IMG/VR virus record: IMGVR_UViG_2974716774_000001 | Span: 1-61,736 of that record | Direction: 5' to 3' (one strand) | DNA: 61,736 bases | Source: Jacunavirus JC01 | Lineage: Duplodnaviria; Heunggongvirae; Uroviricota; Caudoviricetes; Casjensviridae | In this document: positions 13 through 61,736 of the stretch, in pieces | Layout: the number at the start of each line of letters is the position of its first letter | Numbering within the stretch: the first letter of the stretch is position 1 | Position numbers and translations under genes: made by a program | Notes under the pieces: generated by a model | The model's database searches: none | What the model was told of the DNA's origin: nothing | What the model saw: the letters and a program-made list of their open reading frames with translations, nothing else

Positions 13-477
13 CGCGATTCGCGAAAAATTGCCGGTTCCTGTATAGCGCCGCCTTGAAAATCAGCAACTTACGTGGGGCCGCCGGTGGGCTTAGCGTAGC
101 TAACAGGATAATTTTTCAGAAATTCGTCGATAGCCCCGCATTGAAAGTTTTTATTTATCAGCGACTTACAGGCCGCGGTCATCTCGACGGCACAGTGTGT
201 TTCCGGAAACACAGATTTGCCGTATTAAGTGTGTCGGTCAAAAAGCCTTACTGTACAAGGATTTACTATACTCTTAACACACTAACACACAGACACACTT
301 AATGTGTATATAAGGTAAGTAGGTATTGTGTGATGATCGTAATGGCGTTTCACGTTACGTATTATATGTATGTATTAGCGAGTTTTGAGAGTAAGTGTGT
401 CATGGTGAAAGTGCCGAAAAAGTCATGCAGATCATAGGTTTACCCGGCACACCCATTTTTAGCGGAGGGTGTGTCGC

Positions 478-548: not shown

Positions 549-3182
549 TTACGCCCACGTATCGGCGACCTCCTTCGCGGCGCAAGACGCGATTTGTTCT
601 TCCAGGTGGAGTTTCATGGCGTCGTAGTCGATGGTGTCTTTGTCCTTCATCCACTTTTCAGGGTGGCGCATCCATACTGATCCACGAACCCCGTTGACGC
701 GCAGCTGAATACGCTTAACCGGCCCTTTCGAGTACCCCAGCGCTGACAGTCGTGATGCCACTCTGCTGTCACTAGGACGTATGTCACGGGGCACGCTGCG
801 CAGTAACAGTCCTGTGTGTATTAGCTCGTCCGTGACGCCCGCCACATCGTCAGACGCAATGGCGTCTTCCACGAAGTTCGTGAAGTCGTCCTGGGCGTTA
901 TCGATCATGTCGCTGGTGGCTTCAGTGAGCGGAGCAATACCGGAAGAGTGGTCGAAGTCCTCGCTGTATTCCCAGTCACGGAACCACAGCCGCAGCTCGC
1001 CAGCGCACGCCTTGAATGCCTTCTCGAAGTCTTTGAAGAAGCCGGGCTTGTCCTTCAGGAAAGCCATCGCGTCTTCCTTACTGCGAAAGCGAGACCGGAC
1101 TATCAGGAAACGACGGTCGCCATTGCTAATCGGCAGCGCGGCGATGTCGTTGGTGTACATCATCCAGCTGGCCGTGTTCACTTCGTCCTGACCTTCGCGG
1201 TTCTTCCTCTCGATGAAAAGCTGCTCGTTAGTGATAGGCTCCTTCAGGGAGTTAATGACGTCATAGCGGTGGCCCGCAACGCTGATTTCCTCGATGACCT
1301 TCAGCATCGACCCGGCCTGCCATCCCGTGAATGGCCGGTGGATAACCTGGTTGTTGACGGTGCCGACGTTTTCGCGGCCCAGCAGGTACGACATGAATTT
1401 CTTGATAATCGTCTTGCCGGAACCCTGGCCGCCGAGAATGACCAGCGAGTACGTCATGCGTTTGTTCGGGTTATTGATAACCCATGCCAGCCAGTCCATC
1501 GCGTGCCGGTACTCTTCCGGGTCGACGAACTGCGTGCGGAAAAAGTCCTGCACAATCTCAACGGCTTTAAGGCCTTTCTTAGAGATTTTCTCCGGCACTC
1601 CCGGCATCGTTTTCGGGTCAAACGTGTTCAGCCAGAGTTTTCCCTGCCACCGGAAAAAGTCTTCGCTTGGCACGCCGACCTCAGGCTTCCATGACGAACC
1701 TGGCATCCGGCCGTGCATGTCCGGGTAGTACATCATGCCGTGGATAATCGGCACCGGCCGCAAAGCGGTGGCGAATTGCTCAGGACTGCAGCCCATAAAT
1801 GCGGTATGCTGCGCCAGCGAGTTATTGAACGCGTGCGGCACCAGCGCAACTTTCGTCTCGCGGTTGATGAAGAGGTTATCTTTCTCGGCGTACACCCACG
1901 GCTCTATCCAGGCTGGCGCATCAAACTGCTTGTGGTCGACAGACAGTGCGTTGCGTTTGGTGGAAGCAGGGATTTTCTTGCCGGTAATACGTTTGTAGTT
2001 ATCACAGGCCAGCTCTACTGCGTGATCGCGAATGGTTCCCCAGACCGGTGTTTCGCGAAGTCGCTCAGCTGCGCGATCCCATTCGTACAGGTCTTCTGCC
2101 TGTTCGAACATCGGGATAACCCGCAGTAAGATGTCCTTTTCCATACGGGCATCCTCCACTTTCTTCACCAGACTTCTGACGGTGAAGGTGGCACCGCCGG
2201 TGCGGCGGAAATTCCCGTTATCCCATTTGTCGTTAAACGCGGCCTCGTCGTAGTTCGACGCGCGCGCTGACCACTCCTGCGCCAGCTCGCGAAACTCATC
2301 CTGCTCGCGCTCAGCGTCTTTGATGGCTGCGATGACCGGGAACCAGGCAGAATAGTCTTCCGCTGGTGGCAGGTCTTCCAGCAGGGCAGCAAACTCGGCG
2401 TACGTGCCGTCCCATTTATCTTTCGCGTCGTCTGCGTCTACCCAGTCGTCCTCGTCCACTTCGCCCAGGGCATCGGAGCGGTCTTCCGGCGCGCCGCCGA
2501 CGATTTTCCCGCGCTGCGGTGGCTCGTACAGCTTGTCGCCAGGCTGGATTTTTTCCCATCCCTGCTCCATCGCATAGCGGTCAAACTCATCCACGATGCG
2601 GCGCGCGTCGGCAAGGCTCAGCACTTCGAGATCCATGTCAGCGTGCATCGTCAGCGGCGTGTCTTTGCTGACCCACTGATACGGCTTCTGGGTGCCCGGG
2701 TGGATACCGAAGGCGACGAACTGCTGGCCAGCACCGAGGATTTCCACGGCGTTCTTCTCGCCGAAGTCATCGACCCAGCTGTGCGACTTCACTTTCGTGA
2801 ACGGTTCGTCAGCGCAGTAGACGAGCAGCGTTTTTGGCGCCCGGCCCACGCGAGCGGGTGCAAACCCCACGTTGGCTTCGATGAAATCGCGCATATGCTT
2901 CGCCGCGTCGACGTCCATGCAGTCAATATCGACCGCTGGCGTGAACCAGGTGCGGATGCCGATGCCGTAGCGGAAATATTTCTTCTGCCATTCCTCCAGC
3001 GCGTCTTCGTTAACTGCAACCGACTCCCAGTTTTTCATGAGCGGCGCTTTACCGGCCGCCTTGAAAGGCACCAGCTCACCGGTCTTTTTGTCGCGGATCT
3101 TCGCGTCAAGAGGGGAGATTGGAATAAAGGCATAGCCGTTTTCTAGCAACGTCCTGCCGTATTGCTGGAGATATCTTTTCAT
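549..3182 (-). CDS. DNA primase/helicase (P-loop NTPase, D5-like)
   Basis: 877-aa ORF; Walker A-like LVILGGQGSGKT; long N-terminal region preceding the NTPase domain; sits beside the polymerase module. Confidence 0.65.
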   Translation of the reverse strand: MKRYLQQYGRTLLENGYAFIPISPLDAKIRDKKTGELVPFKAAGKAPLMKNWESVAVNEDALEEWQKKYFRYGIGIRTWFTPAVDIDCMDVDAAKHMRDFIEANVGFAPARVGRAPKTLLVYCADEPFTKVKSHSWVDDFGEKNAVEILGAGQQFVAFGIHPGTQKPYQWVSKDTPLTMHADMDLEVLSLADARRIVDEFDRYAMEQGWEKIQPGDKLYEPPQRGKIVGGAPEDRSDALGEVDEDDWVDADDAKDKWDGTYAEFAALLEDLPPAEDYSAWFPVIAAIKDAEREQDEFRELAQEWSARASNYDEAAFNDKWDNGNFRRTGGATFTVRSLVKKVEDARMEKDILLRVIPMFEQAEDLYEWDRAAERLRETPVWGTIRDHAVELACDNYKRITGKKIPASTKRNALSVDHKQFDAPAWIEPWVYAEKDNLFINRETKVALVPHAFNNSLAQHTAFMGCSPEQFATALRPVPIIHGMMYYPDMHGRMPGSSWKPEVGVPSEDFFRWQGKLWLNTFDPKTMPGVPEKISKKGLKAVEIVQDFFRTQFVDPEEYRHAMDWLAWVINNPNKRMTYSLVILGGQGSGKTIIKKFMSYLLGRENVGTVNNQVIHRPFTGWQAGSMLKVIEEISVAGHRYDVINSLKEPITNEQLFIERKNREGQDEVNTASWMMYTNDIAALPISNGDRRFLIVRSRFRSKEDAMAFLKDKPGFFKDFEKAFKACAGELRLWFRDWEYSEDFDHSSGIAPLTEATSDMIDNAQDDFTNFVEDAIASDDVAGVTDELIHTGLLLRSVPRDIRPSDSRVASRLSALGYSKGPVKRIQLRVNGVRGSVWMRHPEKWMKDKDTIDYDAMKLHLEEQIASCAAKEVADTWA

Positions 3183-3460
3183 TCAAGCACCTCGCCTTCA
3201 GCATCAAACCGCATGGCTTCCGGCGCCATTAACCAGGTCGCCTTCACTCCCGAACCGCTGGCCGCCGAGGCGAGCGCGGTGGCAACACGGTATGACATGC
3301 GTCCGGCTTCCTGTGCTTTCAGTGCTGTGTGGTAATTCACATCGGCGAGGCGGGATAGTTGCTGCATTGACCCGTCCCGGTGGGCGTAGGCAGACATAAT
3401 CATGCACAGGTACTTCAGTCGCATGTATTTGTCTTTGCGTGCCCAGTCTGGAAAGCGCAT
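3179..3460 (-). CDS. Hypothetical protein, first gene of leftward operon (possible HTH)
   Basis: 93-aa ORF overlapping primase start by 4 nt; segment SMQQLSRLADVNYHTALKAQ looks helix-turn-helix-like. Confidence 0.45.
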   Translation of the reverse strand: MRFPDWARKDKYMRLKYLCMIMSAYAHRDGSMQQLSRLADVNYHTALKAQEAGRMSYRVATALASAASGSGVKATWLMAPEAMRFDAEGEVLE

Positions 3461-44351: not shown

Positions 44352-44385
44352 AAAAAATGCTCCGGTAGTGTGGGTCTACAGGAGC

Positions 44386-44414
44386 ATTATGATTATACAC
44401 TTCATGTGTGTCAA
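44386..44414 (-). promoter_or_regulatory. Sigma70-type promoter with embedded dyad (family member)
   Basis: Minus strand TTGACA-CACATGAAGTGTATAAT-CATAAT; 17-nt spacer contains ACAC-N5-GTGT. Confidence 0.45.
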
Positions 44415-44421
44415 ACAGTTT

Positions 44422-44948: not shown

Positions 44949-44982
44949 AAAAATCCCCTCGTTGGATTAACCTTCAAGGGGA

Positions 44983-45011
44983 ATATAGATTACACACTAG
45001 AGGTGTGTCAA
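44983..45011 (-). promoter_or_regulatory. Sigma70-type promoter with embedded dyad (family member)
   Basis: Minus strand TTGACA-CACCTCTAGTGTGTAAT-CTATAT. Confidence 0.45.
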
Positions 45012-46864: not shown

Positions 46865-46890
46865 TAAACTGCTCCCATGCTAATCGGTTT

Positions 46891-48506: not shown

Positions 48507-48515
48507 AGCTACCTC

Positions 48516-48710: not shown

Positions 48711-48712
48711 TG

Positions 48713-49216
48713 TTAAAATCCTACGCCGTCAGCTTTACGTTTAGGTGGGATTCTGCGTGGCTCAGGCTCCTGAATCTCCGGCTGAACCTCTTCGCGGAAC
48801 TCATTGGCGGTTTTGATGACTTCGCGCATACCCTCTTCGCTCAGCCTGCCGTAGTCCTTCTCATTGACGTGGATGCCAATGGAGTTAGTGACTGCCCGAT
48901 TGACGATGCTGGTCACGAGCGTGGTTCCCGGGAACACGCCACCCGCAGAGAAGCCTGCCTGGTAGAGCGCATCGGCGGCGTCGCGGATATAATCACGGCA
49001 CGCGGCGCCGGACTCCGGTTTAACCAGCGCCAGCAGAATGGCGGCATAACGTTCGTCCACGACGGACACGTCGTCGCTGCACAGGATTTCCAGCTTGTCT
49101 TTCTGGCTGCAGCGCGCGACAACCTGATCGCCGTTGACCAGCTCGACGGCCAGAATGCGCGGGAACTTCGGAGCATCGGTAACGACCAGCTGGCCGGTTT
49201 GAATTAATTTAGTCAT
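48713..49216 (-). CDS. Hypothetical protein
   Basis: 167-aa ORF, 1-nt overlap with the upstream gene. Confidence 0.45.
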   Translation of the reverse strand: MTKLIQTGQLVVTDAPKFPRILAVELVNGDQVVARCSQKDKLEILCSDDVSVVDERYAAILLALVKPESGAACRDYIRDAADALYQAGFSAGGVFPGTTLVTSIVNRAVTNSIGIHVNEKDYGRLSEEGMREVIKTANEFREEVQPEIQEPEPRRIPPKRKADGVGF

Positions 49217-49965: not shown

Positions 49966-49988
49966 ATCTCACTGTGGTGGCAATGAGA

Positions 49989-50017
49989 ATACTAATTACA
50001 CACTCTGCGTGTGTCAA
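49989..50017 (-). promoter_or_regulatory. Sigma70-type promoter with embedded dyad (family member)
   Basis: Minus strand TTGACA-CACGCAGAGTGTGTAAT-TAGTAT. Confidence 0.45.
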
Positions 50018-50030
50018 GAAGAATCTGGGC

Positions 50031-50061
50031 AAAAGAAAAGCCCGGGTGACTAATCCGGGCT
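50031..50061 (-). terminator. Rho-independent terminator (leftward)
   Basis: Stem AGCCCGG / CCGGGCT with 9-nt loop; on the minus strand followed by TTTTCTTTT. Confidence 0.55.
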
Positions 50062-50115
50062 TTGGGTGATGCACTTACCAGTGAGTGTGATACGTCGGAG
50101 CTGGAATGCAGTAAA

Positions 50116-50385
50116 TCATATATCCGGGTTCTCGTAAATAAGTTTCCACCAGTTATATGCCTCCAGATCTATCTCGACGACGAGCGGGTCATCGAGGTAC
50201 GACATGCAGGTGCCGACGTCTTCCACCATCAGGCAGCAGCTCTCCGGGTGGTGGAGCAGACGCACCTGGCGGAACGTCTTGCGCCACAGCTCATCGCGCT
50301 CCAGGCCTGCCGGGCATTCGATAATCTGGCCAGTGCCCTTGTCCTGCCAGTATTCGGTTTCGAGGCTGACGTATCTGCCCATCAC
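50116..50385 (-). CDS. Hypothetical acidic small protein
   Basis: 89-aa ORF. Confidence 0.4.
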   Translation of the reverse strand: MMGRYVSLETEYWQDKGTGQIIECPAGLERDELWRKTFRQVRLLHHPESCCLMVEDVGTCMSYLDDPLVVEIDLEAYNWWKLIYENPDI

Positions 50386-50603
50386 GATACCCTCTTGATC
50401 CGCGTGCCGGTCTTGCCGTAAATCTCGTCGCGCTCGACGAACCGGAAAGCCAGCCTCAGGTTGAGTTTATAGCCCAGCTTGCGCAGGTACGTGCAGTGCT
50501 TGGGCAGGACGTTCTCCAGGAAGAACGAGTCGCCGATGGCCAGTCGCGCCAGCAGCTCCTCGTGCTTCTGCCTGGTCTCAGGGGAGATGTCAGATATCGT
50601 CAT
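50382..50603 (-). CDS. Hypothetical small protein
   Basis: About 73 aa from the ATG at 50603, overlapping the RdgC-like C-terminus by 14 nt. Confidence 0.4.
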   Translation of the reverse strand: MTISDISPETRQKHEELLARLAIGDSFFLENVLPKHCTYLRKLGYKLNLRLAFRFVERDEIYGKTGTRIKRVS

Positions 50604-51816
50604 CGTCGTCTTCGCTCTCTTCTTCGCCGAGATCCCACTCGTCATCCACCATGTCCTCTTCGCTTTCCGGCAGCGGCTCGCCGCCTTTCGCCTTAGCCTT
50701 CGATTCTTTGGCCACCGCGATATCGTCGCCGTCCGCGTAGTCCTCCAGCGCCGAGCGGTTAACGGTGACGCCGGTGCGATACATCGCGGTGCTGAAGGCA
50801 ACGATGGCGCGACGCATGACCCACAGCTCGCTCATCCACAGCTGGAAAGCATTGTCACCGCGATCATATTCCTGCCCGAAGTCCACGTCATCGCTCTCGG
50901 CGCTGGTGGAGAACGCTTTTACGTCGCCGTTGTGGTTCATCTTCGCCCAGATGTTCTCCATGCCAGGCAGATTGGACATGAAGCGGAACTCCATTTCCGT
51001 CGGGAAGAAGCCGGACGCCAGCAGATCGCGGTAGCGCGGCTCAGCCAGCTCGCCGTCTTTGACCGAGATGGTCTCTTTCTCATCGTTCACGAGTTTCAGG
51101 TGGCTGCCCAGCAGGAAAAGGTCTGCCACATCGGAGTGACGGAGCAGGATGCTGCGGAAGAAGCGCTGCATGGCGCCCTGGTCGACGTACGCGGGCACCG
51201 TAGGGAGCGAGCTGAACGCCTTGCGGATGAGCGCCGTGACATCTTCTGCTGCCTTCTGGCTGCCGGTGAAGACATACAGGTCAAGCCCGTCGATCATGAC
51301 GTAAATGCGGCTGCGGCGGATGGGCGCGGTGGTCAGCAGCTGCGCCGTCACCTCGTCTTTCAGGATGGCGTAGTCTTTGCGGTTCAGCTCGCGCTCTTCG
51401 CGTGCCTTCATCTCGGCGGCGCGCTCAAACAGCTTGTCGTTGATGGAGCTGGACGGCAGCACGCGCTCGCGCTTCTCGATGCACATTACCAGGGAATTGC
51501 ATTCGTGGATCTCGACGACCAGCGGCTGCACATATTTATCTTCGCCGTCTTCTTTACCCGCGTACATGTCTTCCGGCACCGCGTAGTGCGGAGGTACGAA
51601 GCCCCAGGTGCGCCACTGGCCGTGCGCCGGGTCTTTGGCCGGGTGCTCTTTCAGGCGGTCGTGGATGAGCTGAATGGCGGACTCGTGGTCGATTTCGCCT
51701 TCGTGCAGATCCAGAATGGTCAGCAGCGCCGCCGCCACGTCTTTGCCTTCGCGGACGTTCTCGGCGATCTTATCGAGGTAGTAGTGCTGGAACTTATCGA
51801 AGTGCTTCAGTTTCAT
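50590..51816 (-). CDS. Recombination-associated protein RdgC-like
   Basis: 408-aa ORF; AAEDVTALIRKAFSSLPTVP and NSLVMCIEKRERVLPSS match the RdgC pattern ([37 protein letters not shown]); acidic C-terminal tail EEESEDDDDDI. Confidence 0.6.
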   Translation of the reverse strand: MKLKHFDKFQHYYLDKIAENVREGKDVAAALLTILDLHEGEIDHESAIQLIHDRLKEHPAKDPAHGQWRTWGFVPPHYAVPEDMYAGKEDGEDKYVQPLVVEIHECNSLVMCIEKRERVLPSSSINDKLFERAAEMKAREERELNRKDYAILKDEVTAQLLTTAPIRRSRIYVMIDGLDLYVFTGSQKAAEDVTALIRKAFSSLPTVPAYVDQGAMQRFFRSILLRHSDVADLFLLGSHLKLVNDEKETISVKDGELAEPRYRDLLASGFFPTEMEFRFMSNLPGMENIWAKMNHNGDVKAFSTSAESDDVDFGQEYDRGDNAFQLWMSELWVMRRAIVAFSTAMYRTGVTVNRSALEDYADGDDIAVAKESKAKAKGGEPLPESEEDMVDDEWDLGEEESEDDDDDI

Positions 51817-52157
51817 TGGAATGTCTCCGGTGTCACGTTAATGAAGGTTTTCTCCTGCGCGCCCGGCACAACCGCCTTGCGGACATGCGTCAGCGCTTCG
51901 GTCATGCGCTCCCGTGCGGCCTGCAGGCTGGCGCACTGGCGGGAATACTGCTTATCGAGGTCATTAAACAGCGCCTCGTCTTCGGGGTTCGTCGACTCGG
52001 CCAGCTCATTCAGAAGCACCGGGTAGAAGGCGTGCAGCTCTTCCTCGATCTGCGTGAGCCACAGCTCCATGTCGGTGTCCATCCGGGTCAGGCGGTCATA
52101 GTGGGCCGCCATCGTTCTGCGGTGCTGCTTGCCCGCAACGTTAGGGTTATTCGACAT
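51813..52157 (-). CDS. Hypothetical protein
   Basis: 114-aa ORF, 4-nt overlap with the RdgC-like start. Confidence 0.4.
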   Translation of the reverse strand: MSNNPNVAGKQHRRTMAAHYDRLTRMDTDMELWLTQIEEELHAFYPVLLNELAESTNPEDEALFNDLDKQYSRQCASLQAARERMTEALTHVRKAVVPGAQEKTFINVTPETFQ

Positions 52158-52407
52158 CTTTGCTCTCCGCCTGTTTCAGTCCGTACGCCAGGTCGTTAAT
52201 AACCTGCGCCGCTGACATGCCCACGTAGCCGTGCTTGTTTGAGGCCTCCATCGCTTCTTCGTACCACTCTTTGTAGTCTTCGAGGTAGTCAATGCGAGAG
52301 AGGATCTTGCGAACCTGCCCGATATCTACCGATACGCCATCGAGACCTTGCTGCGATGCGATGCGCAAGGCCTGCAGAATCTCTTCAATGCTCAAGTTAT
52401 TCGACAT
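52147..52407 (-). CDS. Hypothetical protein
   Basis: 86-aa ORF. Confidence 0.4.
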   Translation of the reverse strand: MSNNLSIEEILQALRIASQQGLDGVSVDIGQVRKILSRIDYLEDYKEWYEEAMEASNKHGYVGMSAAQVINDLAYGLKQAESKDVE

Positions 52408-52630
52408 TACCTGGCTCCCCCAGCACTTCCAGAATCTCGTGTTGCGTTACCGCCCACTGCACTTCCGGGCTCTCAGCGTGGCCGCTGATATGCACGAGAT
52501 GGTGGACGAGGTAGACCCGCATGTCCGGGCGAGACATCGGGTGATGCGATTTAACAAGACCGCGATAGACGCGGTTGTTATAGCTGTCGCGAAAACGAAT
52601 TTCGCAGCCGATCAGATTGCAGTTCCGCAT
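52397..52630 (-). CDS. Hypothetical protein
   Basis: 77-aa ORF. Confidence 0.35.
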   Translation of the reverse strand: MRNCNLIGCEIRFRDSYNNRVYRGLVKSHHPMSRPDMRVYLVHHLVHISGHAESPEVQWAVTQHEILEVLGEPGNVE

Positions 52631-52652
52631 GGTTATCTCCTGCGGTAAGAGG

Positions 52653-53009
52653 TTATTGTCCGTACAGCCAGCCTTTGTGTTGCTGAAGCAGCTCAGTCGG
52701 GTAGTGCGTGCAGCACCAGCGCAGCAGCATGTACGCGTAGGCGCGCTGCTGGGCGCACTGCTCGTGCCCTACGGCTTTGGCCGGGGTGTAGCGGCCCTTC
52801 TCAAACACGACGTCGCCGTCGCGCTCGGCGATAACGCCTGTCCAGCTCAGGCGGATCTTGAGCCCGTGGCGGCGCTCCAGATCGTTAAACAGCGGTGCGA
52901 TGGCCACGCTTACCGGGGCCACCAGCGTGTTGATGGCCATTGCCGTTTTCGTTGGCACGGCGCCGAGCTTCCACGCCTCGTCTGACACGTTAACCTTGCT
53001 CATCTTCAT
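52653..53009 (-). CDS. Hypothetical protein
   Basis: About 118 aa from the ATG at 53009 preceded by RBS AAGGGG. Confidence 0.4.
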   Translation of the reverse strand: MKMSKVNVSDEAWKLGAVPTKTAMAINTLVAPVSVAIAPLFNDLERRHGLKIRLSWTGVIAERDGDVVFEKGRYTPAKAVGHEQCAQQRAYAYMLLRWCCTHYPTELLQQHKGWLYGQ

Positions 53010-53376
53010 CCCCTTTGGTCGGTAGTTCCACGCTGTAAAGCAGGCGGCTAAGGTCAGCCCGAGCATCCTTCACGCCGCGCACGTATTCTTTCAGGTACTG
53101 CTCGCCGTTCTTCTCGGCCTGCCCGTTGTACTGCGCCATCAGCTGCTCTTTGATGCTGGTGGACAGTGCCGTGTTCGCGCCGCCGCTGCGCACATGGCTG
53201 TCAAACACGGCATAGCGGCCCTGCAGGTAGGCGTTGATGGCCATCTGGCGGCGGAAGCGCGTGTGGTAGCGCCAGGTGTTGAACGCCATGTACACCAGCG
53301 GCGCGCAGATAAGCAGATTGCCGAACCACGCGATCGCGGTCAGCTCCGCCCGGTGCTGCAATATCCAGTCAAGCAT
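52990..53376 (-). CDS. Hypothetical membrane protein
   Basis: 128-aa ORF; N-terminal hydrophobic helix LTAIAWFGNLLICAPLVYMAF. Confidence 0.4.
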   Translation of the reverse strand: MLDWILQHRAELTAIAWFGNLLICAPLVYMAFNTWRYHTRFRRQMAINAYLQGRYAVFDSHVRSGGANTALSTSIKEQLMAQYNGQAEKNGEQYLKEYVRGVKDARADLSRLLYSVELPTKGDEDEQG

Positions 53377-54034
53377 CGTTGTCCTCCACCAGCTCGTAGA
53401 CGAGGAAGCCCGGAACTTCGGTGATGCGCATGGGCCGCGATTCGACCAGCGTTTTCAGCACCTCAGCCGTGTTGATGCGCAGCTCGGTCATGCCGTTGCC
53501 GATCATGATTTGACGAACCGTGGCTTCAAAGAAGGCGTTGAACTCTTCTCCGTGGCGCTCTTCCATCTTGTCCATCAGCGCACGAAGCAGTTCATTTTCG
53601 TCGAGCAGATCCCACTGCTTCTGGAGGCGCTCAACCTCGGCCTGCGCCTTCTCGCGGGTGTCGATGACGTCGCGACCGGCCAGCGATTCAAACTGAGCGG
53701 CGCTGGTGTCGGTTTCAGCCGCCTGCACAGGGGAATACTTAACCTCTTTTAAATCCTCCGCCATCTTGTCATAAGGCGCAGCAAATGCAGCGTACGAACC
53801 CGGCTGGCGGCCCTGCGGCGCCACGGTGGAGTTATAGGCATAGCCTGCCACCTTCGTGCCGTTAAGCAGCACGTTCAGGCGCGCCGCCACCGCGTCATAG
53901 AGCGACGGGTTGAGGTCTTTAATCCGCACTGCCACACCGCCGTTAAGCTCGGCGATAATGCTTTTGATCGGCGATACACCGTCAAATTTGTTAGCCACAG
54001 CCACGGCCAGGTTCATCAGTTCTTTCTGTTCCAT
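53369..54034 (-). CDS. Hypothetical protein
   Basis: About 221 aa from the ATG at 54034 preceded by RBS AAGGA. Confidence 0.45.
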   Translation of the reverse strand: MEQKELMNLAVAVANKFDGVSPIKSIIAELNGGVAVRIKDLNPSLYDAVAARLNVLLNGTKVAGYAYNSTVAPQGRQPGSYAAFAAPYDKMAEDLKEVKYSPVQAAETDTSAAQFESLAGRDVIDTREKAQAEVERLQKQWDLLDENELLRALMDKMEERHGEEFNAFFEATVRQIMIGNGMTELRINTAEVLKTLVESRPMRITEVPGFLVYELVEDNDA

Positions 54035-54044
54035 GTTGGTGTCC

Positions 54045-54581
54045 TTAAATCTTGTCACGGAGCCACTGGATCCCAGCGGACATGTATTTGACCTGATGAA
54101 TCGCATCATCGAGGGCGTTGTGGAATGTGCCTTCTCGTTCGAACTTCAACGGGTTTATGCCTGCCAGATCTACCGCCGTACGAACGTCGCGGATATTCCA
54201 GAATTTCCACGGTGTCGGAAGATGCAGCTGAGCGAACCACGCTTCCAGAATAGTGATGTCGAACACGGATCCGTTGCCCCAAACGAGGTCATTACCGTCC
54301 AGCCACTGAATGAATTTAAGGGCACTCTCGCGCGGGTTGTCGCTGCCATTAAACGCGTCCTGCTTAGCGGCGTCTGACTGTTTCTGCCACCATTCCAGGG
54401 TGTCGGGGTCAACGTGCCCGAAGGCGCGGGCATTTTCGTAGCCCATGCAGCAGTAGAACGTCTCACCGATCTCGCCCGTGTAGCGGTCGAAAGCCACGGC
54501 GCCGATGGACAGCACCGAACAGCCCGGGCTACGGCCGAGCGTCTCAATGTCGATCATTACGTCACGATGTTTCTTTTTCAC
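54045..54581 (-). CDS. DEDDh-type 3'-5' exonuclease (DnaQ-like)
   Basis: 178-aa ORF; Exo I IDIETLG, Exo III HNALDDA. Confidence 0.6.
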   Translation of the reverse strand: MKKKHRDVMIDIETLGRSPGCSVLSIGAVAFDRYTGEIGETFYCCMGYENARAFGHVDPDTLEWWQKQSDAAKQDAFNGSDNPRESALKFIQWLDGNDLVWGNGSVFDITILEAWFAQLHLPTPWKFWNIRDVRTAVDLAGINPLKFEREGTFHNALDDAIHQVKYMSAGIQWLRDKI

Positions 54582-55450
54582 CAGTCTTCTCCGAAAGGAT
54601 TACACTCTTCAGTGCAGTTACCCGGCGCATCTTCATACAACGGCCGGTAGTCATTATCGACTTCACTAAACGTCGCTATCAGGTCAGCGGCGCTACGGAA
54701 GCCCCGGTACATCTTGCGTGGCCCTTCGACCACATTTGGCCCGACGTCACCACAGCTTTTCTCCATTTCCGCCGCGGCGTGGAAGTATTCCGGATTGTCC
54801 TGGAAGGCCCGGAGCAGCTTCGCGTCAGACTTTTTAAAGCAGAAAACGCAGTTTCCGCAGTGCTCAGGTATCCCCAGGTCAAACGGCATAAACTCCCACC
54901 AGTCGAGCACATCTTCTTTCGTGGTTGGCCACCAGTGCGCCAGCGGGTACACCTTGTTTTGCCGGGTCTGGCGGTCAGGCTTTTTAGGCTTGATGCGCCG
55001 TGGTTCGTCAATGCGCATACCGACGGCTGTCAGGTATTCCCCTTTGGCCCAGCCCAGCGCCTCCCACAGATACCCGTGGATCGGTATCTCTTTCAGCTCC
55101 CGCGTGCAGTGCAGGTAGTTGGTGTTCGGTAGCCCATACTTCCGGCACATCTCGATGTAGGGCTCACCTTTGCGGCTGGCGGTCTCGTACGTCACTACCT
55201 TCCAGCCGGTGCGCACGCCTTTCTGCTCGTGCGTTATCGCCTCCACCCACACGGTATTGAAGCCCAGCTGAACGTCGCAGTTATGCACGAAGTCCAGCGT
55301 GGCCGGGTGCTCAAAGCCAGTGTTGGCGAAAAGCACTTTAATGTCGTACTCGTCTGACTTCTCCTGCAGCAGCCGGTACGTCATGTGCGCCGAGGTTCGG
55401 CCACCGGACATGGCGGCCACCAGCCGTGGTTTCATTTGTGATGCCCGCAC
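54578..55450 (-). CDS. PP-loop ATP pyrophosphatase superfamily protein (PAPS-reductase-like)
   Basis: 290-aa ORF; PP-loop-like AAMSGGRTSA near the N-terminus; cysteine pairs HCGNCVFC and NCTEEC. Confidence 0.55.
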   Translation of the reverse strand: MRASQMKPRLVAAMSGGRTSAHMTYRLLQEKSDEYDIKVLFANTGFEHPATLDFVHNCDVQLGFNTVWVEAITHEQKGVRTGWKVVTYETASRKGEPYIEMCRKYGLPNTNYLHCTRELKEIPIHGYLWEALGWAKGEYLTAVGMRIDEPRRIKPKKPDRQTRQNKVYPLAHWWPTTKEDVLDWWEFMPFDLGIPEHCGNCVFCFKKSDAKLLRAFQDNPEYFHAAAEMEKSCGDVGPNVVEGPRKMYRGFRSAADLIATFSEVDNDYRPLYEDAPGNCTEECNPFGEDW

Positions 55451-56208
55451 TTTGAACAGACCAGATAATCTTCCTGGTAGATGTCGGGACAGGAATGAGG
55501 AACCCAGTTGTGCTCACAGGGCTTCGTCTTTTCGCGGTCGATCCCGAGCGTCAGCGGGGCGATTTCATTCGGCATTATCTGGAAGTGGTTAGTCAGCGCG
55601 CCTGCGATGGCCATGCCTTCTTCCCGATCGATGCGTGTTTCGATGCGGGTCAGCAAGCCCTGCTGGAAGATGAATGAGGTTTCGCCCTGCACGTCGTCCA
55701 GCTGAATGACGCGAGGCATCTGATTGAGGTCGGGCAGCTTAAAGCTGGTGGTTTTTCCGCTGCCCTGCTGGCCGACACCGATGACGTCAGGACGGGATTT
55801 CCCCTGTTCCGGTGCGGCGGGCTTATATTGTCGATTCTCCATGCCGAGAAGCTTGAGTGCCTCATCGAAGAACATGATTTCCACCGAAAATCCCTCTGAC
55901 TCCAGTTTGTCGCGGGTTTTAGTGAGTTTTTCCTGACGTGCAACGTTCGTCAGAACCAGAAAGCGCCAGCCCAAAAGGGAGGTTTCGACCTGTTTGCCTG
56001 CAGCTCTGCACCGCGCAGCGAAAGAAGTCATGTTAATCAGATCCCGGAAATTTCCATCCCAGCTGTCGAGGACGCTTTTGCATTTAAGCTTCTCCTTAAG
56101 CGCATAGGCGTAGGTGGTTTTTCCGCAGCCCTGCGGGCCGACAACGATGACGAACGTCGGTCGGTCGCTGGTGACGGGAGGGATGGTGCTGCCATTATGT
56201 CGAATCAT
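55432..56208 (-). CDS. P-loop NTPase with two Walker-A motifs and C-terminal Cys/His zinc-ribbon-like tail
   Basis: 258-aa ORF; VGPQGCGKTT and VGQQGSGKTT; VIQLDD Walker-B-like; C-terminal CEHNWVPHSCP...CSKCGHH. Confidence 0.5.
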   Translation of the reverse strand: MIRHNGSTIPPVTSDRPTFVIVVGPQGCGKTTYAYALKEKLKCKSVLDSWDGNFRDLINMTSFAARCRAAGKQVETSLLGWRFLVLTNVARQEKLTKTRDKLESEGFSVEIMFFDEALKLLGMENRQYKPAAPEQGKSRPDVIGVGQQGSGKTTSFKLPDLNQMPRVIQLDDVQGETSFIFQQGLLTRIETRIDREEGMAIAGALTNHFQIMPNEIAPLTLGIDREKTKPCEHNWVPHSCPDIYQEDYLVCSKCGHHK

Positions 56209-56273
56209 TTCTCTGCTCCGGTTGGGGTGGTACGCCCGGCGAAGAGGTGCCGGGCCTATGGGTGCGCTGGCGG

Positions 56274-56684
56274 TCAGGCCGTGCGCGTTACGATGACCTG
56301 CACGTATACCACGCCGCTCGGCGTGATGGTGGCGTTGGTCTCCATTGTGAAGTTACGGTTGTCGACGCTCTTCGCGTGACGGATGGACTGATTCAGCGAC
56401 TGGCGCAGCTGGCGCTTCCATTCGTTCATGTTCTGACGAACCTCGGCCAGCGTCATGTCGTCCGGCATTTTCAGGCTGCGCGAGTAGTTTCCGCCAGGCT
56501 TGAGAGACAGCAGGTTGGAGATGGCGCTGCCCGGGCGGCCGTTGCCCGGCAGGTCTACGTCCGGCTCGGCAGACAGCAGGGCTGCGGTGATAGCCTGCGC
56601 AGTAAGGCTGGTGGCTGTGTTGCCGCCGGTCGGCGCGTCCACATCATCAGGCAGATCCCATACGTCGTCGTGCTCGTTTGACAT
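56274..56684 (-). CDS. Hypothetical protein, first gene of the long leftward accessory operon
   Basis: About 137 aa from the ATG at 56684 preceded by RBS GGAG; the longer upstream ORF extension runs through the direct repeats and is rejected. Confidence 0.5.
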   Translation of the reverse strand: MSNEHDDVWDLPDDVDAPTGGNTATSLTAQAITAALLSAEPDVDLPGNGRPGSAISNLLSLKPGGNYSRSLKMPDDMTLAEVRQNMNEWKRQLRQSLNQSIRHAKSVDNRNFTMETNATITPSGVVYVQVIVTRTA

Positions 56685-56717
56685 TTTATTACTCCGTGTG
56701 TCGTTTGAAGATGTGAG

Positions 56718-56747
56718 AAAGATATAACTACACTTCGGATGTGTCAA
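56718..56747 (-). promoter_or_regulatory. Sigma70-type promoter with embedded dyad (family member) driving the leftward operon
   Basis: Minus strand TTGACA-CATCCGAAGTGTAG...TATATC about 30 nt upstream of the 56684 start. Confidence 0.45.
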
Positions 56748-56771
56748 ACTTTTTCTGGGCGCTCGGGGGCA

Positions 56772-57024
56772 GGCTGACTTTCTGAAGTAAGGCGGCGCGG
56801 CATGGCGTTCGTCACGGAAAACCGACAGCCGGGTAACTTTTTGAAGTAAGGAAACGCCGTGGCGCCGCGCGACAACCGGCTGACTTTTTGAAGTAAGGAA
56901 GTCATTCAAAAATTTTGGAAGCGAGCGACAGCCGGGTAACTTTTTGAAGTAAGCCGGGGATTTTCCTGAACAGCCGCAAAACCTCGTCGGCTCGATCGAC
57001 AGCCGGGTAACTTTTTGAAGTAAG
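56772..57024. repeat. Array of five direct repeats (core CTTTTTGAAGTAAG; long form CGACAGCCGGGTAACTTTTTGAAGTAAG)
   Basis: Copies at about 56772-56792 (degenerate), 56823-56850, 56873-56898 (degenerate), 56926-56953 and 56997-57024. Confidence 0.85.
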
Positions 57025-57293
57025 CCCCGCGGGCGGCGCGCCTCGCGCGTATATAAAGAGGGCCGTGGCGCCGGGCGGCCCAGGGTGGCGCCGAAAACGT
57101 GTGAAAATACGCGATTTTTGCTTTTTCTATGTGAATCAAGCACTTATCGAATTTTCAGCGCCCTGGGCGGCGTGGTTTTCTTGTGAATCAATGGCTTACG
57201 AGGTGGGCGGCGCGCCCTGGTGGGCCGGGCCGTTCTGGATTTCCATATAAACCAGGCATTTAGCGAATCTGTGAAAATTTTTGTAGAAAGTCT

Positions 57294-57322
57294 TTGACAC
57301 ACTCCGGGTGTATCACTACTAT
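57294..57322 (+). promoter_or_regulatory. Sigma70-type promoter with embedded dyad (family member) driving rightward genes
   Basis: TTGACA-CACTCCGGGTGTATCAC-TACTAT. Confidence 0.45.
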
Positions 57323-57372
57323 TCATCTCATCGGGGCAGCGGCCCCCATCTAAAAACTGATGAGGCGAAAAT

Positions 57373-57633
57373 ATGGAAAAGGTCTATCACACGCTCAAAG
57401 GCGAAACCCTTCAACACTGGCTCACCATTGCCATTATCCGCGATGTTTCCGGCGATGCACGTGTTGAAACGCGCAGCACGATCCATGTTAATAAAGTCTC
57501 CCCCGTCTCCTTCACCTGGGGCGCAGATTTTACCGACGCTGACATCCTGAATGATGGCGACCTTCTGCGCGTAGTTTACCAGCGCTACGGTCGTGACATT
57601 TTCACCGGTAAATATACCCGCGATTTTAATTAA
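57373..57633 (+). CDS. Hypothetical protein
   Basis: 86-aa ORF with RBS GAGG upstream. Confidence 0.4.
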   Translation: MEKVYHTLKGETLQHWLTIAIIRDVSGDARVETRSTIHVNKVSPVSFTWGADFTDADILNDGDLLRVVYQRYGRDIFTGKYTRDFN

Positions 57634-57643
57634 GGAGATCATC

Positions 57644-58165
57644 ATGCAAACTATTCAAACTAAATATAGCAATGGTCGAGTACGTGCCGCGTGCTGGAAT
57701 GGCTCCTGTCGTATTGATGCAGACCCGGCGCTGTCCAGTGAGGCTAATCATCGTGCCGCCGCTGAAAAATTGGTCGCTAAATTAAACGCTAATCGTAACG
57801 TTTTATGGGGGATCGTATGCAGCGCGCCATCGGTGGGCGACGGCTGGACTTTCATTATTGACTACGTGCCGGATATTCGCCCGCTTAATATGTCCATCAC
57901 GGTTAAATTCATGCCCGCGACTAATACCGGCCCGGCTTATATGCGTGTTTATTCATGGTTAAAACCAAAAGGAATTAAGGTGCATTATTCGCCGAAAGTC
58001 GCGGACGGTTGCGATATTCAAGGGCACGCGTTGTATGCGGCAAATATAATGCTGGATGAAATAAACCGCCAGTGTGAGGAAACGCGCGCGGGTATCAAAT
58101 ACGGCATTAGCGAATACGTTATGACCTACGACGGCGATCGCCTGTTCACCGTCAAAGCTGAATAA
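57644..58165 (+). CDS. Hypothetical protein
   Basis: About 173 aa from the ATG at 57644 preceded by RBS AAGGAG. Confidence 0.45.
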   Translation: MQTIQTKYSNGRVRAACWNGSCRIDADPALSSEANHRAAAEKLVAKLNANRNVLWGIVCSAPSVGDGWTFIIDYVPDIRPLNMSITVKFMPATNTGPAYMRVYSWLKPKGIKVHYSPKVADGCDIQGHALYAANIMLDEINRQCEETRAGIKYGISEYVMTYDGDRLFTVKAE

Positions 58166-58277
58166 TATTTAATTCTGGCCTTTCCGCCGTCGAAATATGA
58201 AAGCCCCGCGGGCCGTGAGTAGCGGCGGAAAAGGTTTTAATTAAGTGTTAATCCGAATAACTGAAAGGGGAATTATT

Positions 58278-58901
58278 ATGCGTGCCATTAGTCTGTCTGA
58301 ATCCGCTTCTTACCGTGTCCTGTACACTTCCCTTGCGCATGTGTCGCCTGCGGATCTTGCCAACCTTAAATCTATGTGTGAGGCCGGATATTATTTCGTT
58401 CACAACGTGGAAAATGATTTTTCCGGTATTATTTGCCGCTATGGTGCCGTAACGCCTGAAAGCGATGTCGGGGAAGTGATGATCGGCGATTATGGGTTTT
58501 CTGAATCTTTCGGCGAAATGATCGCGCAGTTCAAAGACGCCGGTTTTGATGCGGTGCATTTTGACGTTGACGGGGATTTAGTGGAGGGCGTCACCTGGTA
58601 CACGGAAAATAATACTCGTGTACAGCCCATTGCTTACGGCTGTGAAATATTAACATGGTGGGATCTGGCCGTTGAGCATCAGCTCACCGCAACGGATGAA
58701 TACGGGGATGACGGCGACGCGGATTTAAAATATTTTTTGGCGGATGGCGTGCTGTACTGCCTCGATAATTTCATGCGAGTAACTGATGGCGAAATGCAGG
58801 AGATGGGCTTTCACGCGAGCGCCGGTGAATCAAACGGCAGCGCCATCTGCATTACGCTCTCGGATAATAGTGATTTTGTCGACGTGGCGCGCGTATCATG
58901 A
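58278..58901 (+). CDS. Hypothetical strongly acidic protein
   Basis: About 207 aa from the ATG at 58278 with RBS AAGGGG; very high Asp/Glu content. Confidence 0.45.
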   Translation: MRAISLSESASYRVLYTSLAHVSPADLANLKSMCEAGYYFVHNVENDFSGIICRYGAVTPESDVGEVMIGDYGFSESFGEMIAQFKDAGFDAVHFDVDGDLVEGVTWYTENNTRVQPIAYGCEILTWWDLAVEHQLTATDEYGDDGDADLKYFLADGVLYCLDNFMRVTDGEMQEMGFHASAGESNGSAICITLSDNSDFVDVARVS

Positions 58902-59104
58902 CCGGCCCGGCAAAACGTGCGGCGGTTAAATTTACCGTATGCGCCGCGCTTGCTGTATTCGGTGGAGTGGCGATCCCGTTTGCCGGGTCGCCGTATAAGG
59001 TTTTTCTTTATGTCCTGGCTATCGGCGTATGCGTTAAACTCGCATGGCCCAGCCAGGAGGAGGGCGAGGCGCTGATTAAGGCGGTAGACGATGAGAAGCG
59101 TTAA
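58898..59104 (+). CDS. Small membrane protein
   Basis: 68-aa ORF; two hydrophobic segments. Confidence 0.4.
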   Translation: MTGPAKRAAVKFTVCAALAVFGGVAIPFAGSPYKVFLYVLAIGVCVKLAWPSQEEGEALIKAVDDEKR

Positions 59105-59279
59105 GATTGAAACGCGCGGCGGCATGTTGCTACGCGCGCCGCTCGATGCGATATCCGTTATCGAGGAAACCGGATCGTTGCGCGCTGAATGGGACATGCG
59201 GCATGTGTTGATTCATAATCCGCGCTTCCTGTACACGGTCAGGCCCGGCGATATCAAATCAATTCAGTATTCCCAATAG
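59091..59279 (+). CDS. Hypothetical small protein
   Basis: 62-aa ORF overlapping the upstream gene; followed by a terminator. Confidence 0.35.
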   Translation: MRSVKIETRGGMLLRAPLDAISVIEETGSLRAEWDMRHVLIHNPRFLYTVRPGDIKSIQYSQ

Positions 59280-59303
59280 CCCGCATCGCGGGCTTTTTTA
59301 TTT
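59278..59303 (+). terminator. Rho-independent terminator
   Basis: Stem AGCCCGC / GCGGGCT, loop ATC, followed by TTTTTTATTT. Confidence 0.65.
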
Positions 59304-59372
59304 CCGATCCGCGACGAACGCCCTAGTTTTGGATAGCTCGCTAACTATCACATCACGAAAATAAATGATTGT

Positions 59373-59401
59373 TTGACACACTTCAGGTGTATCATTAATA
59401 T
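59373..59401 (+). promoter_or_regulatory. Sigma70-type promoter with embedded dyad (family member)
   Basis: TTGACA-CACTTCAGGTGTATCAT-TAATAT. Confidence 0.45.
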
Positions 59402-59447
59402 TCTCTTATCAGGCCGATTCCCGGCCCCCACTGATGAGGTTGTGATT

Positions 59448-59840
59448 ATGGATCGTACGAAACTTGCCGCTGATTTCACCCAGGGCTATATCGAGGCGCT
59501 GTTATTCTCTTCCACTGTCGAGATCAACGGCGAAACGGTGAGCGCCGATCTGGTGGGATATGTTTCAACCGCTGCGATCGGCTCATGCACTGCGGATTGT
59601 AACGATTTCCTGTCAAAGCATAAGCCGCTGGTAAAACAGGCCGCACGCATTGAAGGCTACAGCGCATCACAGGCGGGCCATGATTTCGCGCTCACCCGCA
59701 ACGGTCACGGCGCTGGATTCTGGGATCGCGAGGTGTTGCCCCAGGAGCTGCGCGACGCGCTCACAGCCGCATCACAGGCTTTCGGTGAGGTCAGCGCATA
59801 CGTGAATGATGCCGGTGAGGTCGAATTAGCCAACGCCTGA
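59448..59840 (+). CDS. Hypothetical protein
   Basis: About 130 aa from the ATG at 59448 with RBS GAGG. Confidence 0.45.
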   Translation: MDRTKLAADFTQGYIEALLFSSTVEINGETVSADLVGYVSTAAIGSCTADCNDFLSKHKPLVKQAARIEGYSASQAGHDFALTRNGHGAGFWDREVLPQELRDALTAASQAFGEVSAYVNDAGEVELANA

Positions 59841-59846
59841 AAGTGT

Positions 59847-59876
59847 TTGACACACTCGGTGTATGTCATGTATATT
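59847..59876 (+). promoter_or_regulatory. Sigma70-type promoter with embedded dyad (family member)
   Basis: TTGACA-CACTCGGTGTATGTCATG-TATATT. Confidence 0.4.
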
Positions 59877-59904
59877 CACCACATCAACTGGTGAGAGGTG
59901 ACAC

Positions 59905-60102
59905 ATGAAAACGATTTTCCTGATTTGCGGCCTGCTGGCGCTGGCTTTACTGGCTCTGAATGTTGAGTTTATCGGCGTGGCGGTCTTTGTGGTTGTCGCT
60001 GGTGCAATCGCAGCTGGTGGCGCGGCAATGATTCTTCTCCCGCTGTTCATCATGGCGCGTGACATCTGCCGCGCAGTGAGTAAGGCGGTGAGCCGTGGCT
60101 AA
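59905..60102 (+). CDS. Small hydrophobic membrane protein (two TM segments)
   Basis: 65-aa ORF with RBS GAGAGG; almost entirely hydrophobic. Confidence 0.45.
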   Translation: MKTIFLICGLLALALLALNVEFIGVAVFVVVAGAIAAGGAAMILLPLFIMARDICRAVSKAVSRG

Positions 60103-60346
60103 TAAATTCCTGATGGCCATGCGCCAGGCGGACACGTATCGCGGCCATCTGCGCGCTAAAGGCTTTACCCGCAAGGCTGGATCGGGCGACCTGATTTTCA
60201 CGCGTGGCGACGCCGATCTGCGCTATGACGGCGACGCCGATCGCTGGGTGTGTGATGTGTTCACCGTTGTTGATGGCGAGCGCGCCGTGCTGTTTACCCG
60301 CAAGGCCGCGCCCATGCTCTTAACCGTTTTGAAATCTGTTCTGTGA
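60095..60346 (+). CDS. Hypothetical protein
   Basis: 83-aa ORF overlapping the upstream stop. Confidence 0.4.
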   Translation: MANKFLMAMRQADTYRGHLRAKGFTRKAGSGDLIFTRGDADLRYDGDADRWVCDVFTVVDGERAVLFTRKAAPMLLTVLKSVL

Positions 60347-60356
60347 GGTGCTGATT

Positions 60357-60620
60357 ATGTCAATTGCTCTTATCCTGGCGGTGTGTACGCCGCTTATTTC
60401 CGGCGGTGATGAATGCACGCATCACTATGTGAAAATGTACGACACTCCCGCGCAGTGTGTGGCTGTGATGGATCGAAACCAGCAAAAGCTTGATGACCGC
60501 TATCTGGCCTGTCAAAGCGCCGATGCTATGTGGCTCATCGACCGCACCAACGGGCGCAGCGCAGAGCAAATCATCGCTGACCTTAACGCCAGCATTCCGT
60601 ATCAGGGCGGCGCTAAATGA
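60357..60620 (+). CDS. Hypothetical secreted/lipoprotein-like protein
   Basis: About 87 aa from the ATG at 60357 with RBS GAGGTG; N-terminal signal-like MSIALILAVCTPLISGG. Confidence 0.4.
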   Translation: MSIALILAVCTPLISGGDECTHHYVKMYDTPAQCVAVMDRNQQKLDDRYLACQSADAMWLIDRTNGRSAEQIIADLNASIPYQGGAK

Positions 60621-60707
60621 TGCGCCTGTTCTGTTTCGCGCTTTCCGGCGCGTATCTCGCTATCCTGGTGGCGCTGTTAGCCGCCGTATTCCTTCAGTGG
60701 TGACGCC

Positions 60708-61115
60708 ATGTCTATTGCAACTATCCCCCGTTACTATGTGCGCCTTGTGCGCCCGCATCGCCTGGAGCCGGGCCAGAAAATCATGGTTGAGGTCAAAACG
60801 CTGGTGCCGCTTGAGCCAATGACGCTAAACCGTCGTACCGTGTCGCGGTCTGACTGGCGCGTCGTTACCGTGGATGACGTGGAGTTTTTCGGCTCGCATG
60901 TCCTGGTGAATTGGTCGTATGACGATGAGCGCTACAACCGGGAAACCGAAAGATTTGATCCGCGCGTCAAATACGGCGCTATCCGCTACGATGCCGTGGA
61001 GCAATACGCGCCGCTCGTGCTTGCCTGGATCGAGGGCACCGAAAAAGAAAAACGCATCTGCATAGAAAATCGCGAGGCAAAGTACGGCATCTTTCCGCGT
61101 GACCGCTTCCGATAG
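60708..61115 (+). CDS. Hypothetical protein
   Basis: 135-aa ORF, last rightward gene before the terminal non-coding region. Confidence 0.45.
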   Translation: MSIATIPRYYVRLVRPHRLEPGQKIMVEVKTLVPLEPMTLNRRTVSRSDWRVVTVDDVEFFGSHVLVNWSYDDERYNRETERFDPRVKYGAIRYDAVEQYAPLVLAWIEGTEKEKRICIENREAKYGIFPRDRFR

Positions 61116-61156
61116 CTGATATCCATTCCTTCCCGTCTCTCATCCGGCCCGCCCTG

Positions 61157-61183
61157 CGCGGGCTTTTTTATTTCCGCTATTCC
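61157..61183 (+). terminator. Rho-independent terminator
   Basis: Stem GCCCGC / GCGGGC, loop CCTGC, followed by TTTTTTATTT; near-copy of the 59278-59303 terminator. Confidence 0.65.
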
Positions 61184-61343
61184 GCCACGCTTTGACCTTT
61201 ATCCGACTTGTGCGACGAACGCCCTGGTTTTGGATTCAATTCTAATTATCACGCATGTTATTAGTTAGCCGTGCCCGTTGCCACGTTGCAGCGTGCGCCC
61301 TGCGATGCGCCCTGTAAGCGGGCCTGTGATACGGGCCAGTGCT

Positions 61344-61445
61344 CACACACTTCGGATGTGTCATGGGTGGCTGTGGTGCTGACACTTCGGATGTATCAAA
61401 GGCGCGGTGTGATTGTGACACGTTGATACACATGGAATGTGTCAT
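61344..61445. promoter_or_regulatory. Cluster of TGACAC/GTGTCA dyad elements (operator-like or packaging-recognition sites)
   Basis: CACACACTTCGGATGTGTCA (61344-61363), TGACACTTCGGATGTATCA (about 61380-61398), GTGACACGTTGATACACA and AATGTGTCATG (about 61412-61445). Confidence 0.4.
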
Positions 61446-61724
61446 GCCTGCGGCTGTGCTGTGGTACGGATGATGCCGCGTGCCCTGGTGTGGTGGGCTG
61501 GTGGATAGCCCTGATAATACCCTTTCTCCTGATGTTCTGTGATGCGGTGTGACAACCGCACTATCTGATGCCCATAGAAGGCCGATAAACGAGGCTGTGC
61601 GGGCCGATCTATGCTGTGCCTATGATACCCTATTGCTTCTGTGCTTGCGTGGCGTGTGGTGCGCGCTGTGCGTTATTCCGCGAAAGCCGAAAAGGTACTT
61701 CCCCGGCCAGGCCGGAAAGCCGGG

Positions 61725-61736
61725 GGTGCGCAGAGC
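61725..61736. repeat. Terminal 12-bp direct repeat GGTGCGCAGAGC, right copy (putative cohesive end)
   Basis: Exact copy of bases 1-12 at the last 12 positions of the window. Confidence 0.6.

Follow-up and report, generated by a model that had tools for sequence, protein, structure and literature searches.

Seven near-identical sites in the accessory arms of the 61,736-bp window (the whole stretch of DNA analysed here) are best read as sigma70 promoters that each carry an operator for a dimeric, most likely phage-encoded repressor; from sequence and comparison, the probability of this reading is put at roughly 0.6. Three strong promoters would fire rightward over 57.3-61.1 kb and four leftward over 56.7-42.4 kb, starting the operons of the accessory arms. 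A dimeric protein that recognizes two half-sites one helical turn apart would cover -34 to -14 of each promoter and, when bound, would exclude RNA polymerase at all seven, and the accessory operons would be silenced, or timed, in concert. Promoter-less copies of the site near both genome ends would be bound by this protein as well.

The window starts and ends with the identical 12 bases GGTGCGCAGAGC (1-12 and 61725-61736), which were reported as the 12-base cohesive end of Salmonella phage Chi (PMC4342425). The nucleotide identity of the structural genes to those of Chi-like phages is only 72-76%. In a search of the phage collection, the best record was Jacunavirus SLP-22, with 41% of a 20-kb query covered at 76% identity, and no near-identical genome was found in the collection. 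Based on the Chi cos at both ends and the low identity to Chi-like records, the window is read as the complete genome of an undescribed, Chi-like member of the Casjensviridae. The cos overhang is equal in the window and Chi despite the only distant relatedness of the two genomes. The gene map has the Chi layout, with the following blocks:

3460 to 549, leftward: primase operon
3704-42178, rightward: long block of replication, structural and lysis genes
56684 to 42434, leftward: left accessory arm
57373-61115, rightward: right accessory arm

When the genome ends are joined, about 1.1 kb surrounding the junction is without a convincing gene. The genes of the leftward arm at 54578-55435, 45314-46015 and 42434-42916 are for a PAPS-reductase-like protein, a Dam-family adenine methyltransferase, which is present in all genera sampled, and a second methyltransferase, respectively, and these enzymes hint at DNA modification.

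The seven promoter sites had been placed by a preliminary description at 57294, 59373 and 59847 on the plus strand and at 44414, 45011, 50017 and 56747 on the minus strand, and all of these coordinates and strands were confirmed. The modules are as follows, with the inverted repeat in the spacer given as the dyad:

Module 1, 57294..57322, plus strand: first promoter of the rightward arm; -35 at 57294-57299; dyad 57295-57315, TGACACAC-TCCGG-GTGTATCA; -10 TACTAT at 57317-57322; next gene (DUF7300 protein, plus strand) starts at 57373
Module 2, 59373..59401, plus strand: dyad 59374-59394; -10 TAATAT at 59396-59401; next gene starts at 59448
Module 3, 59847..59876, plus strand: dyad 59848-59868, TGACACAC-TCGGT-GTATGTCA; -10 TATATT at 59871-59876; next gene starts at 59905
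Module 4, 44386..44414, minus strand: dyad 44393-44413; -10 CATAAT at 44391-44386; next gene starts at 44351
Module 5, 44982..45011, minus strand: dyad 44990-45010, core CACAC-N5-GTGTG; -10 TATATT at 44987-44982; next gene starts at 44948
Module 6, 49989..50017, minus strand: dyad 49996-50016; -10 TAGTAT at 49994-49989; next gene starts near 49959
Module 7, 56719..56747, minus strand: first promoter of the leftward arm and weakest member, TTGACACAT; -10 TATCTT at 56724-56719; next gene (DUF7609, minus strand) starts at 56684

The motif is strongly over-represented in its exact or composite form. TTGACACAY-N4-5-GTGT was found six times, compared with 0.01 expected from dinucleotide shuffles, and ACAC-N5-GTGT was found 14 times with both strands counted, compared with 1.55 expected from shuffles; enrichment is limited to such motifs, and the nine-mer TTGACACAC with one mismatch permitted was not enriched (12 found, 12 expected). 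A weight matrix of 46 columns, built from the seven sites, scored them at 46-58 bits, or at 18-45 bits in a leave-one-out analysis. The next-best matches, at 9-17 bits, were the reverse strands of the same seven sites, because of the dyad, and above 8 bits nothing more was found. A similar frequency of the motif inside coding regions had been named in advance as evidence against the family; the weight matrix gives no match in coding sequence. An independent consensus scan of 42000-61736 ranked the same seven sites at the top, with 10-11 of 12 hexamer matches. All seven are intergenic on the gene map and are oriented toward the next gene. Their placement upstream of gene starts therefore holds as described, but the stated distance of 20-45 nt does not, since 28-50 nt separate the end of the -10 hexamer from the start codon.

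The -35 hexamer is an exact TTGACA in every site and is followed by a spacer of 17 or 18 bp; when the first T of this hexamer is given index 1, the -10 begins at index 24 or 25. All seven -10 hexamers have A as their second base and T as their sixth. An A-rich upstream element, aGAAA, is located at about -44 to -40, which is the position of the proximal UP subsite, and TATTCtC follows the -10 hexamer. The similarity among the seven sites, from the A-rich element to TATTCtC, spans about 45 bp. A terminator-like hairpin is present at 59278-59294, upstream of module 2 (59373). Because of the perfect -35 hexamer, the 17-18 bp spacer, the -10 hexamer, the A-rich element, the orientation and the one upstream terminator, the seven sites are very likely sigma70 promoters of the host type. 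A promoter on the reverse strand, using the right arm of the dyad as its -35, was considered and rejected, as no -10 hexamer lies at a fitting distance.

The ACAC...GTGT dyad that had been pointed out in the spacer is present, but its extent had been set too short: the full dyad is 21 bp long, TGACACAC-N5-GTGTRTCA, occupies index 2-22 and has its centre at index 12 (about -24). It covers about -34 to -14, which is the contact region of RNA polymerase, and its left arm overlaps the -35 hexamer. In the module at 59847 the inner GTGT is shifted 2 nt nearer the -35 and the outer TGACA/TGTCA frame is retained; the module at 56747 has the most degenerate right arm of the seven. Sites for the host proteins CRP, FNR, Fis and IHF were rejected, since their consensus sequences do not fit the half-site.

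Relatives were compared as annotated genomes, a locus search with a single protein having given just two relatives. The promoters of the relatives were chosen by a regular expression for -35 and -10; three loci had first been found by a dyad-containing pattern, which introduces a small selection bias. The promoter-dyad architecture is present in all eight Casjensviridae genera sampled and also in three IMG/VR contigs, with the following dyads:

Jacunavirus SLP-22 and contig L012: TGACACA-N7-TGTGTCA, with perfect 7-bp arms in two promoters
Chivirus FSL SP-030: TTGACATAC-N5-GTGTA
Yonseivirus Seifer: ACACG-N3-CGTGT
Redjacvirus: ACAYAY..GTRTGT
Sharonstreetvirus (Aeromonas): GACACC-N7-GGTGTC
Lavrentievavirus (Proteus): ACACC..GGT
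Dunedinvirus JS26: GACATGC-N5-GCNTGTC
IMG/VR contigs L007, L008 and L010: ACAYAY..GTGTRT, like the window

Over 49 promoters, complementarity about the symmetry axis at index sum 24 was 68%, compared with 9-43% for other axes, and a formal pair count over 52 promoters found 79.4% of cells paired; this apparent symmetry is inflated because the -35 hexamer partly fixes the left arm. The covariation score of the 52 promoters was 0.271, compared with 0.170 ± 0.014 for shuffles, of which none among 500 reached 0.271, and slid partner registers scored at most 0.134. At pair 8/16, 36 promoters have A-T, 10 have C-G and 3 have G-C, and both sides of the pair change between genera. Covariation as such is equally expected for a hairpin. 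When information content was profiled over 36 promoters of the ACAYAY type, A at -28, T at -20 and T at -18 proved invariant (2 bits), and the remaining arm positions carry 0.5-1.4 bits; the -10 hexamer stays below these invariant positions, with 0.78 bits at -12 and 1.24 bits at -11, and the five central bases, -26 to -22, carry 0.3-0.6 bits. Such a variable centre between conserved arms is the pattern to be expected if the two half-sites are contacted and the bases between them are not.

Dyads without a clear -35 or -10 had also been noted near 293-309 and 61344-61445. They were confirmed at four places, and further half-sites were found beside the left one:

291..311: promoter-less dyad near the left cos end, AGACACAC-TTAAT-GTGTATAT
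225-235 and 391-401: half-site repeats TTAAGTGTGTC flanking 291-311, plus GTGTGTC at 469-475
61343-61363, 61380-61398 (19-bp version, 2 bp shorter) and 61424-61444: promoter-less triplet, 292-393 bp from the right cos end

The copy at 61343-61363 has a 17-nt core, TGACACATCCGAAGTGT, that is identical to the core of module 7 (56747). The promoter-less copies keep ACACAC..TGTGTCA, have lost the TTG of the -35 and have no -10. Equivalent triplets, equally far from the right end, are found in the Jacunavirus-like contig L012 (284-388) and in Redjacvirus (L015, 237-495), and SLP-22 has one such triplet at the edge of its record. Because the promoter-less copies keep the dyad, with its position conserved in relatives, it is concluded that the dyad is selected for itself and not as a by-product of promoter sequence. 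The earlier suggestion that it exceeds the needs of a promoter is thus upheld by conservation across eight genera, arms more conserved than the -10 hexamer, a variable centre, pair covariation and these promoter-less copies.

At the left end (225-235, 292-302, 391-401 and 469-484) TTAAGTGTGTC occurs three times, once inverted; a triple ACACAC run lies at 277-298, and GTGTGTCG..CAAAAA occurs twice. These left-end repeats represent half-sites of the promoter dyad, differently arranged, and recognition by terminase is one possibility for their role.

It may be asked whether a regulator is needed at all. The sites could be plain strong sigma70 promoters, with a spacer likeness that stems from common descent or cassette duplication and perhaps from selection on spacer shape (alternating CA/TG steps). 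Such an origin would account for a similarity that takes in the A-rich element and TATTCtC over about 45 bp, as in paralogous copies, and agrees with the overlap of the left arm with the -35 and with the pyrimidine-purine alternation ACAYAY/RTRTGT, which is retained where complementarity fails. It is nevertheless judged unlikely. Orthologous promoters (for example, 45011 in the window, 7234 in L007 and 16171 in SLP-22) differ chiefly in the five central bases, which diverge freely between fixed arms; moreover, pair 8/16 shows two-sided change in other genera, and dyads persist without TTG and -10 at positions conserved in three genera.

Alternatively, what binds the dyad might be a host regulator, or a phage protein acting mainly at the genome ends, such as the small terminase or an end-binding or injection protein, with occupancy of the promoters only secondary. 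Lambda cosB-type sites adjoin the nick site and are not some 300 bp away, which speaks against a genome-end signal; the promoter-less triplets, at a conserved 240-500 bp from the right cos end in three genera, and the half-site repeats at the left end favour a function there. In the related phage JS26, the right genome end was reported to enter the cell first (bioRxiv 10.64898/2025.12.19.695335), which fits the same view, as does the fact that no clear repressor gene was found. Seven of the 11 dyad copies are, however, within promoters, and a host factor is disfavoured by the dyad type, which differs among phages of related hosts and agrees among those of distant ones. Taken as a whole, this explanation is also rather unlikely.

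That the dyad acts as a nucleic-acid structure (DNA cruciform, single-strand hairpin or stem-loop in read-through RNA) is very improbable: covariation at 8/16 and 6/18, the many transition-type mismatches that would be G-T/G-U wobbles and the transcription that internal promoters receive from upstream are compatible with it, but the predicted single-strand energies of the seven dyads are only -1.6 to -5.2 kcal/mol and no better than shuffles in five of them, wobble-type mismatches occur on both strands so that neither folds consistently, the arm sequence itself is fixed per genome beyond pairing, the two first promoters have no upstream transcript, and an Rfam search of the window gave no family match. 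A hairpin promoter of the N4 virion RNA polymerase type was rejected on the weak hairpin energies, mostly within the shuffle range, and on the presence of full sigma70 hexamers.

The dimeric protein that would occupy the seven promoters is more likely encoded by the phage than by the host, because the dyad type follows phage genus rather than host: Providencia and Proteus phages differ in it, and Proteus and Aeromonas phages agree. Two genes were considered as its source:

3179..3460, minus strand: 93-aa protein, upstream of the primase gene, with a predicted Cro/XRE-type helix-turn-helix fold
56274..56684, minus strand: DUF7609, alone among the small arm genes in being found in each of the seven other genera

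The product of 3179-3460 has detectable sequence homologues in five genera, and JS26 has a small gene at the same position that aligns at only 22% identity. As a candidate with a predicted Cro/XRE fold, this protein may be the dyad regulator, which is possible but doubtful. It had been suggested in the preliminary description, and the helix-turn-helix fold is supported by prediction, but the recognition helix does not track the dyad type: within the family, the helix of the window is very unlike that of Chi or Redjac, despite similar dyads. Different motifs, GGTACC and AGATTTGC, are conserved in the promoter region of the gene, and these could be the real targets of the protein. The second suggested regulator, 43648-44025, gave only a weak PHROG hit and has no homologue in other genera.

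Several observations concern the divergent region at 3461-3703, which separates the primase operon from the long rightward one. It contains two dyad-free TTGACG promoters with GC-rich 18-bp spacers, and its leftward promoter is bracketed by the inverted repeat AGATTTGC/GCAAATCT, the second part of which is also found in Chi and Seifer. GGTACC motifs recur in the equivalent region of other genera sampled and are paired in several of them. In Chi, Seifer and XAP3 the stretch from cos to the primase gene codes for a second helix-turn-helix protein, the variable gp01. Chi gp01, 'cro/cI', cannot be the family-wide factor because the window and SLP-22 have no homologue and no such gene at that place.

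DUF7609 has a promoter of the family directly upstream in 7 of 8 genomes, including that of JS26, whose homologue gp28 was reported to be essential (bioRxiv 10.64898/2025.12.19.695335). Its predicted structure is a mediocre model with no informative fold match, and as the dyad regulator this protein is a second, weaker and improbable candidate. The broader idea that a new-fold regulator of the DUF7609 type reads both the accessory promoters and the triple array near the first-injected end is quite unlikely; if true, early and middle transcription throughout the Casjensviridae would be timed in step with DNA entry or with the handling of the ends. Searches of about 40 early and arm proteins against Pfam, PHROGs and NCBIfam detected no recognized DNA-binding domain in any of them, and no MerR-family protein was hit among the 40 early and arm proteins in Pfam.

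One regulon that controls the accessory genes in both directions, as had been proposed, is plausible. RNA-seq of JS26, which gives timing per gene, revealed that its two arms are expressed at different times, the equivalent of the right arm of the window at 5 min and that of the left arm at 20 min (PMC8754663). The dyad promoters of JS26 were found in the arm classed there as 'middle' and not in the 'early' one. Because of this location, the regulon may serve to time expression and not just to switch early genes off, and simple early shut-off may be the wrong timing model. In the literature on Casjensviridae and Chi promoters, the motif string and DUF7609, no prior description of the promoter family or the dyad was found.

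Dispersed promoter-operator modules are a known kind of system, by analogy with those of 434, P22, P1 and phiC31. In 434 the operator, ACAA-N6-TTGT, is a short dyad that covers part of the site used by RNA polymerase on early promoters, and a small helix-turn-helix dimer binds it. The sites described here resemble this and other lambdoid operators (434 and P22 Cro/cI at OR/OL) in their conserved arms, variable centre and overlap with the RNA polymerase site, and the window encodes a protein with a predicted 434/Cro-like fold. They differ in that each promoter carries one operator instead of a tripartite switch, in that the outer half of one operator arm is the -35 hexamer, and in that the seven promoters are dispersed in an apparently virulent phage, in which no cI-type repressor, integrase or immunity region was seen. 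The P1 C1 operators and the phiC31 inverted repeats occur in many dispersed copies, through which one protein controls many operons. Here, too, one operator is repeated over the genome, each copy on a member of a highly similar promoter family; P1 and phiC31, however, are temperate and have known repressors, P1 operators are asymmetric, and phiC31 early promoters are not known to be of sigma70 consensus, whereas the operator described here is joined to a perfect TTGACA and has further, promoter-less copies in triplets near cos.

Two further comparisons concern the spacer. Operators of the MerR family also lie between -35 and -10 with a centre near -24, but MerR promoters have spacers of 19-20 bp and are activated by DNA twisting; an operator of this type was rejected here, with spacers of the optimal 17-18 bp and no MerR-like protein detected. 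The T7 A1-A3 and T5 early promoters are likewise several near-consensus host promoters with A-rich upstream elements, serving non-essential early genes near the first-injected end; they are shut off by polymerase-directed factors and not by operators, and they are not known to have a conserved spacer dyad, unlike the promoters of the window. The system described here is a new, family-wide member of the known kind, with an unusual fusion of -35 and operator arm and with conserved arrays of promoter-less dyads close to the genome ends.

Chi-like phages are widely isolated for the control of Salmonella, Klebsiella, Proteus and Aeromonas, and their transcription control is, to our knowledge, essentially unstudied. 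A family-wide promoter-operator motif with clear covariation is now available, together with a map of the early and middle operons. The 21-bp dyad can serve as bait for the identification of the regulator, and the promoters are compact strong parts for engineering Chi-like phages. Attention is also drawn to the conserved arrays of candidate binding sites beside the cos ends.

Some minor features were observed around the promoters. The leaders behind the promoters at 57294 and 59373 (57326-57372 and 59402-59447) share CTYATC, a GC-rich hairpin and CTGATGAGG, in this order, and in both the 3' arm of the hairpin overlaps a GAGG ribosome-binding site; the predicted fold energies of the leader hairpins are no better than those of shuffles. 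Contigs L010 and L012 retain the leader start CACATCGGGGCGG as well. Between the first leftward promoter and the first rightward one lies a divergent region of 550 bp, in which five direct repeats of about 31 nt (CGACAGCCGGGTAACTTTTTGAAGTAAG...) occupy 56764-57027 and three copies of TGTGAATCAAGCACTTA lie further right, at 57130-57262. The repeats at 56764-57027 could be a replication origin or the array of a second regulator. One of the repeats of about 31 nt has 93-95% identity to unannotated intergenic DNA of Chi-like Salmonella phages, and JS26 has a different iteron array at the same divergent place.
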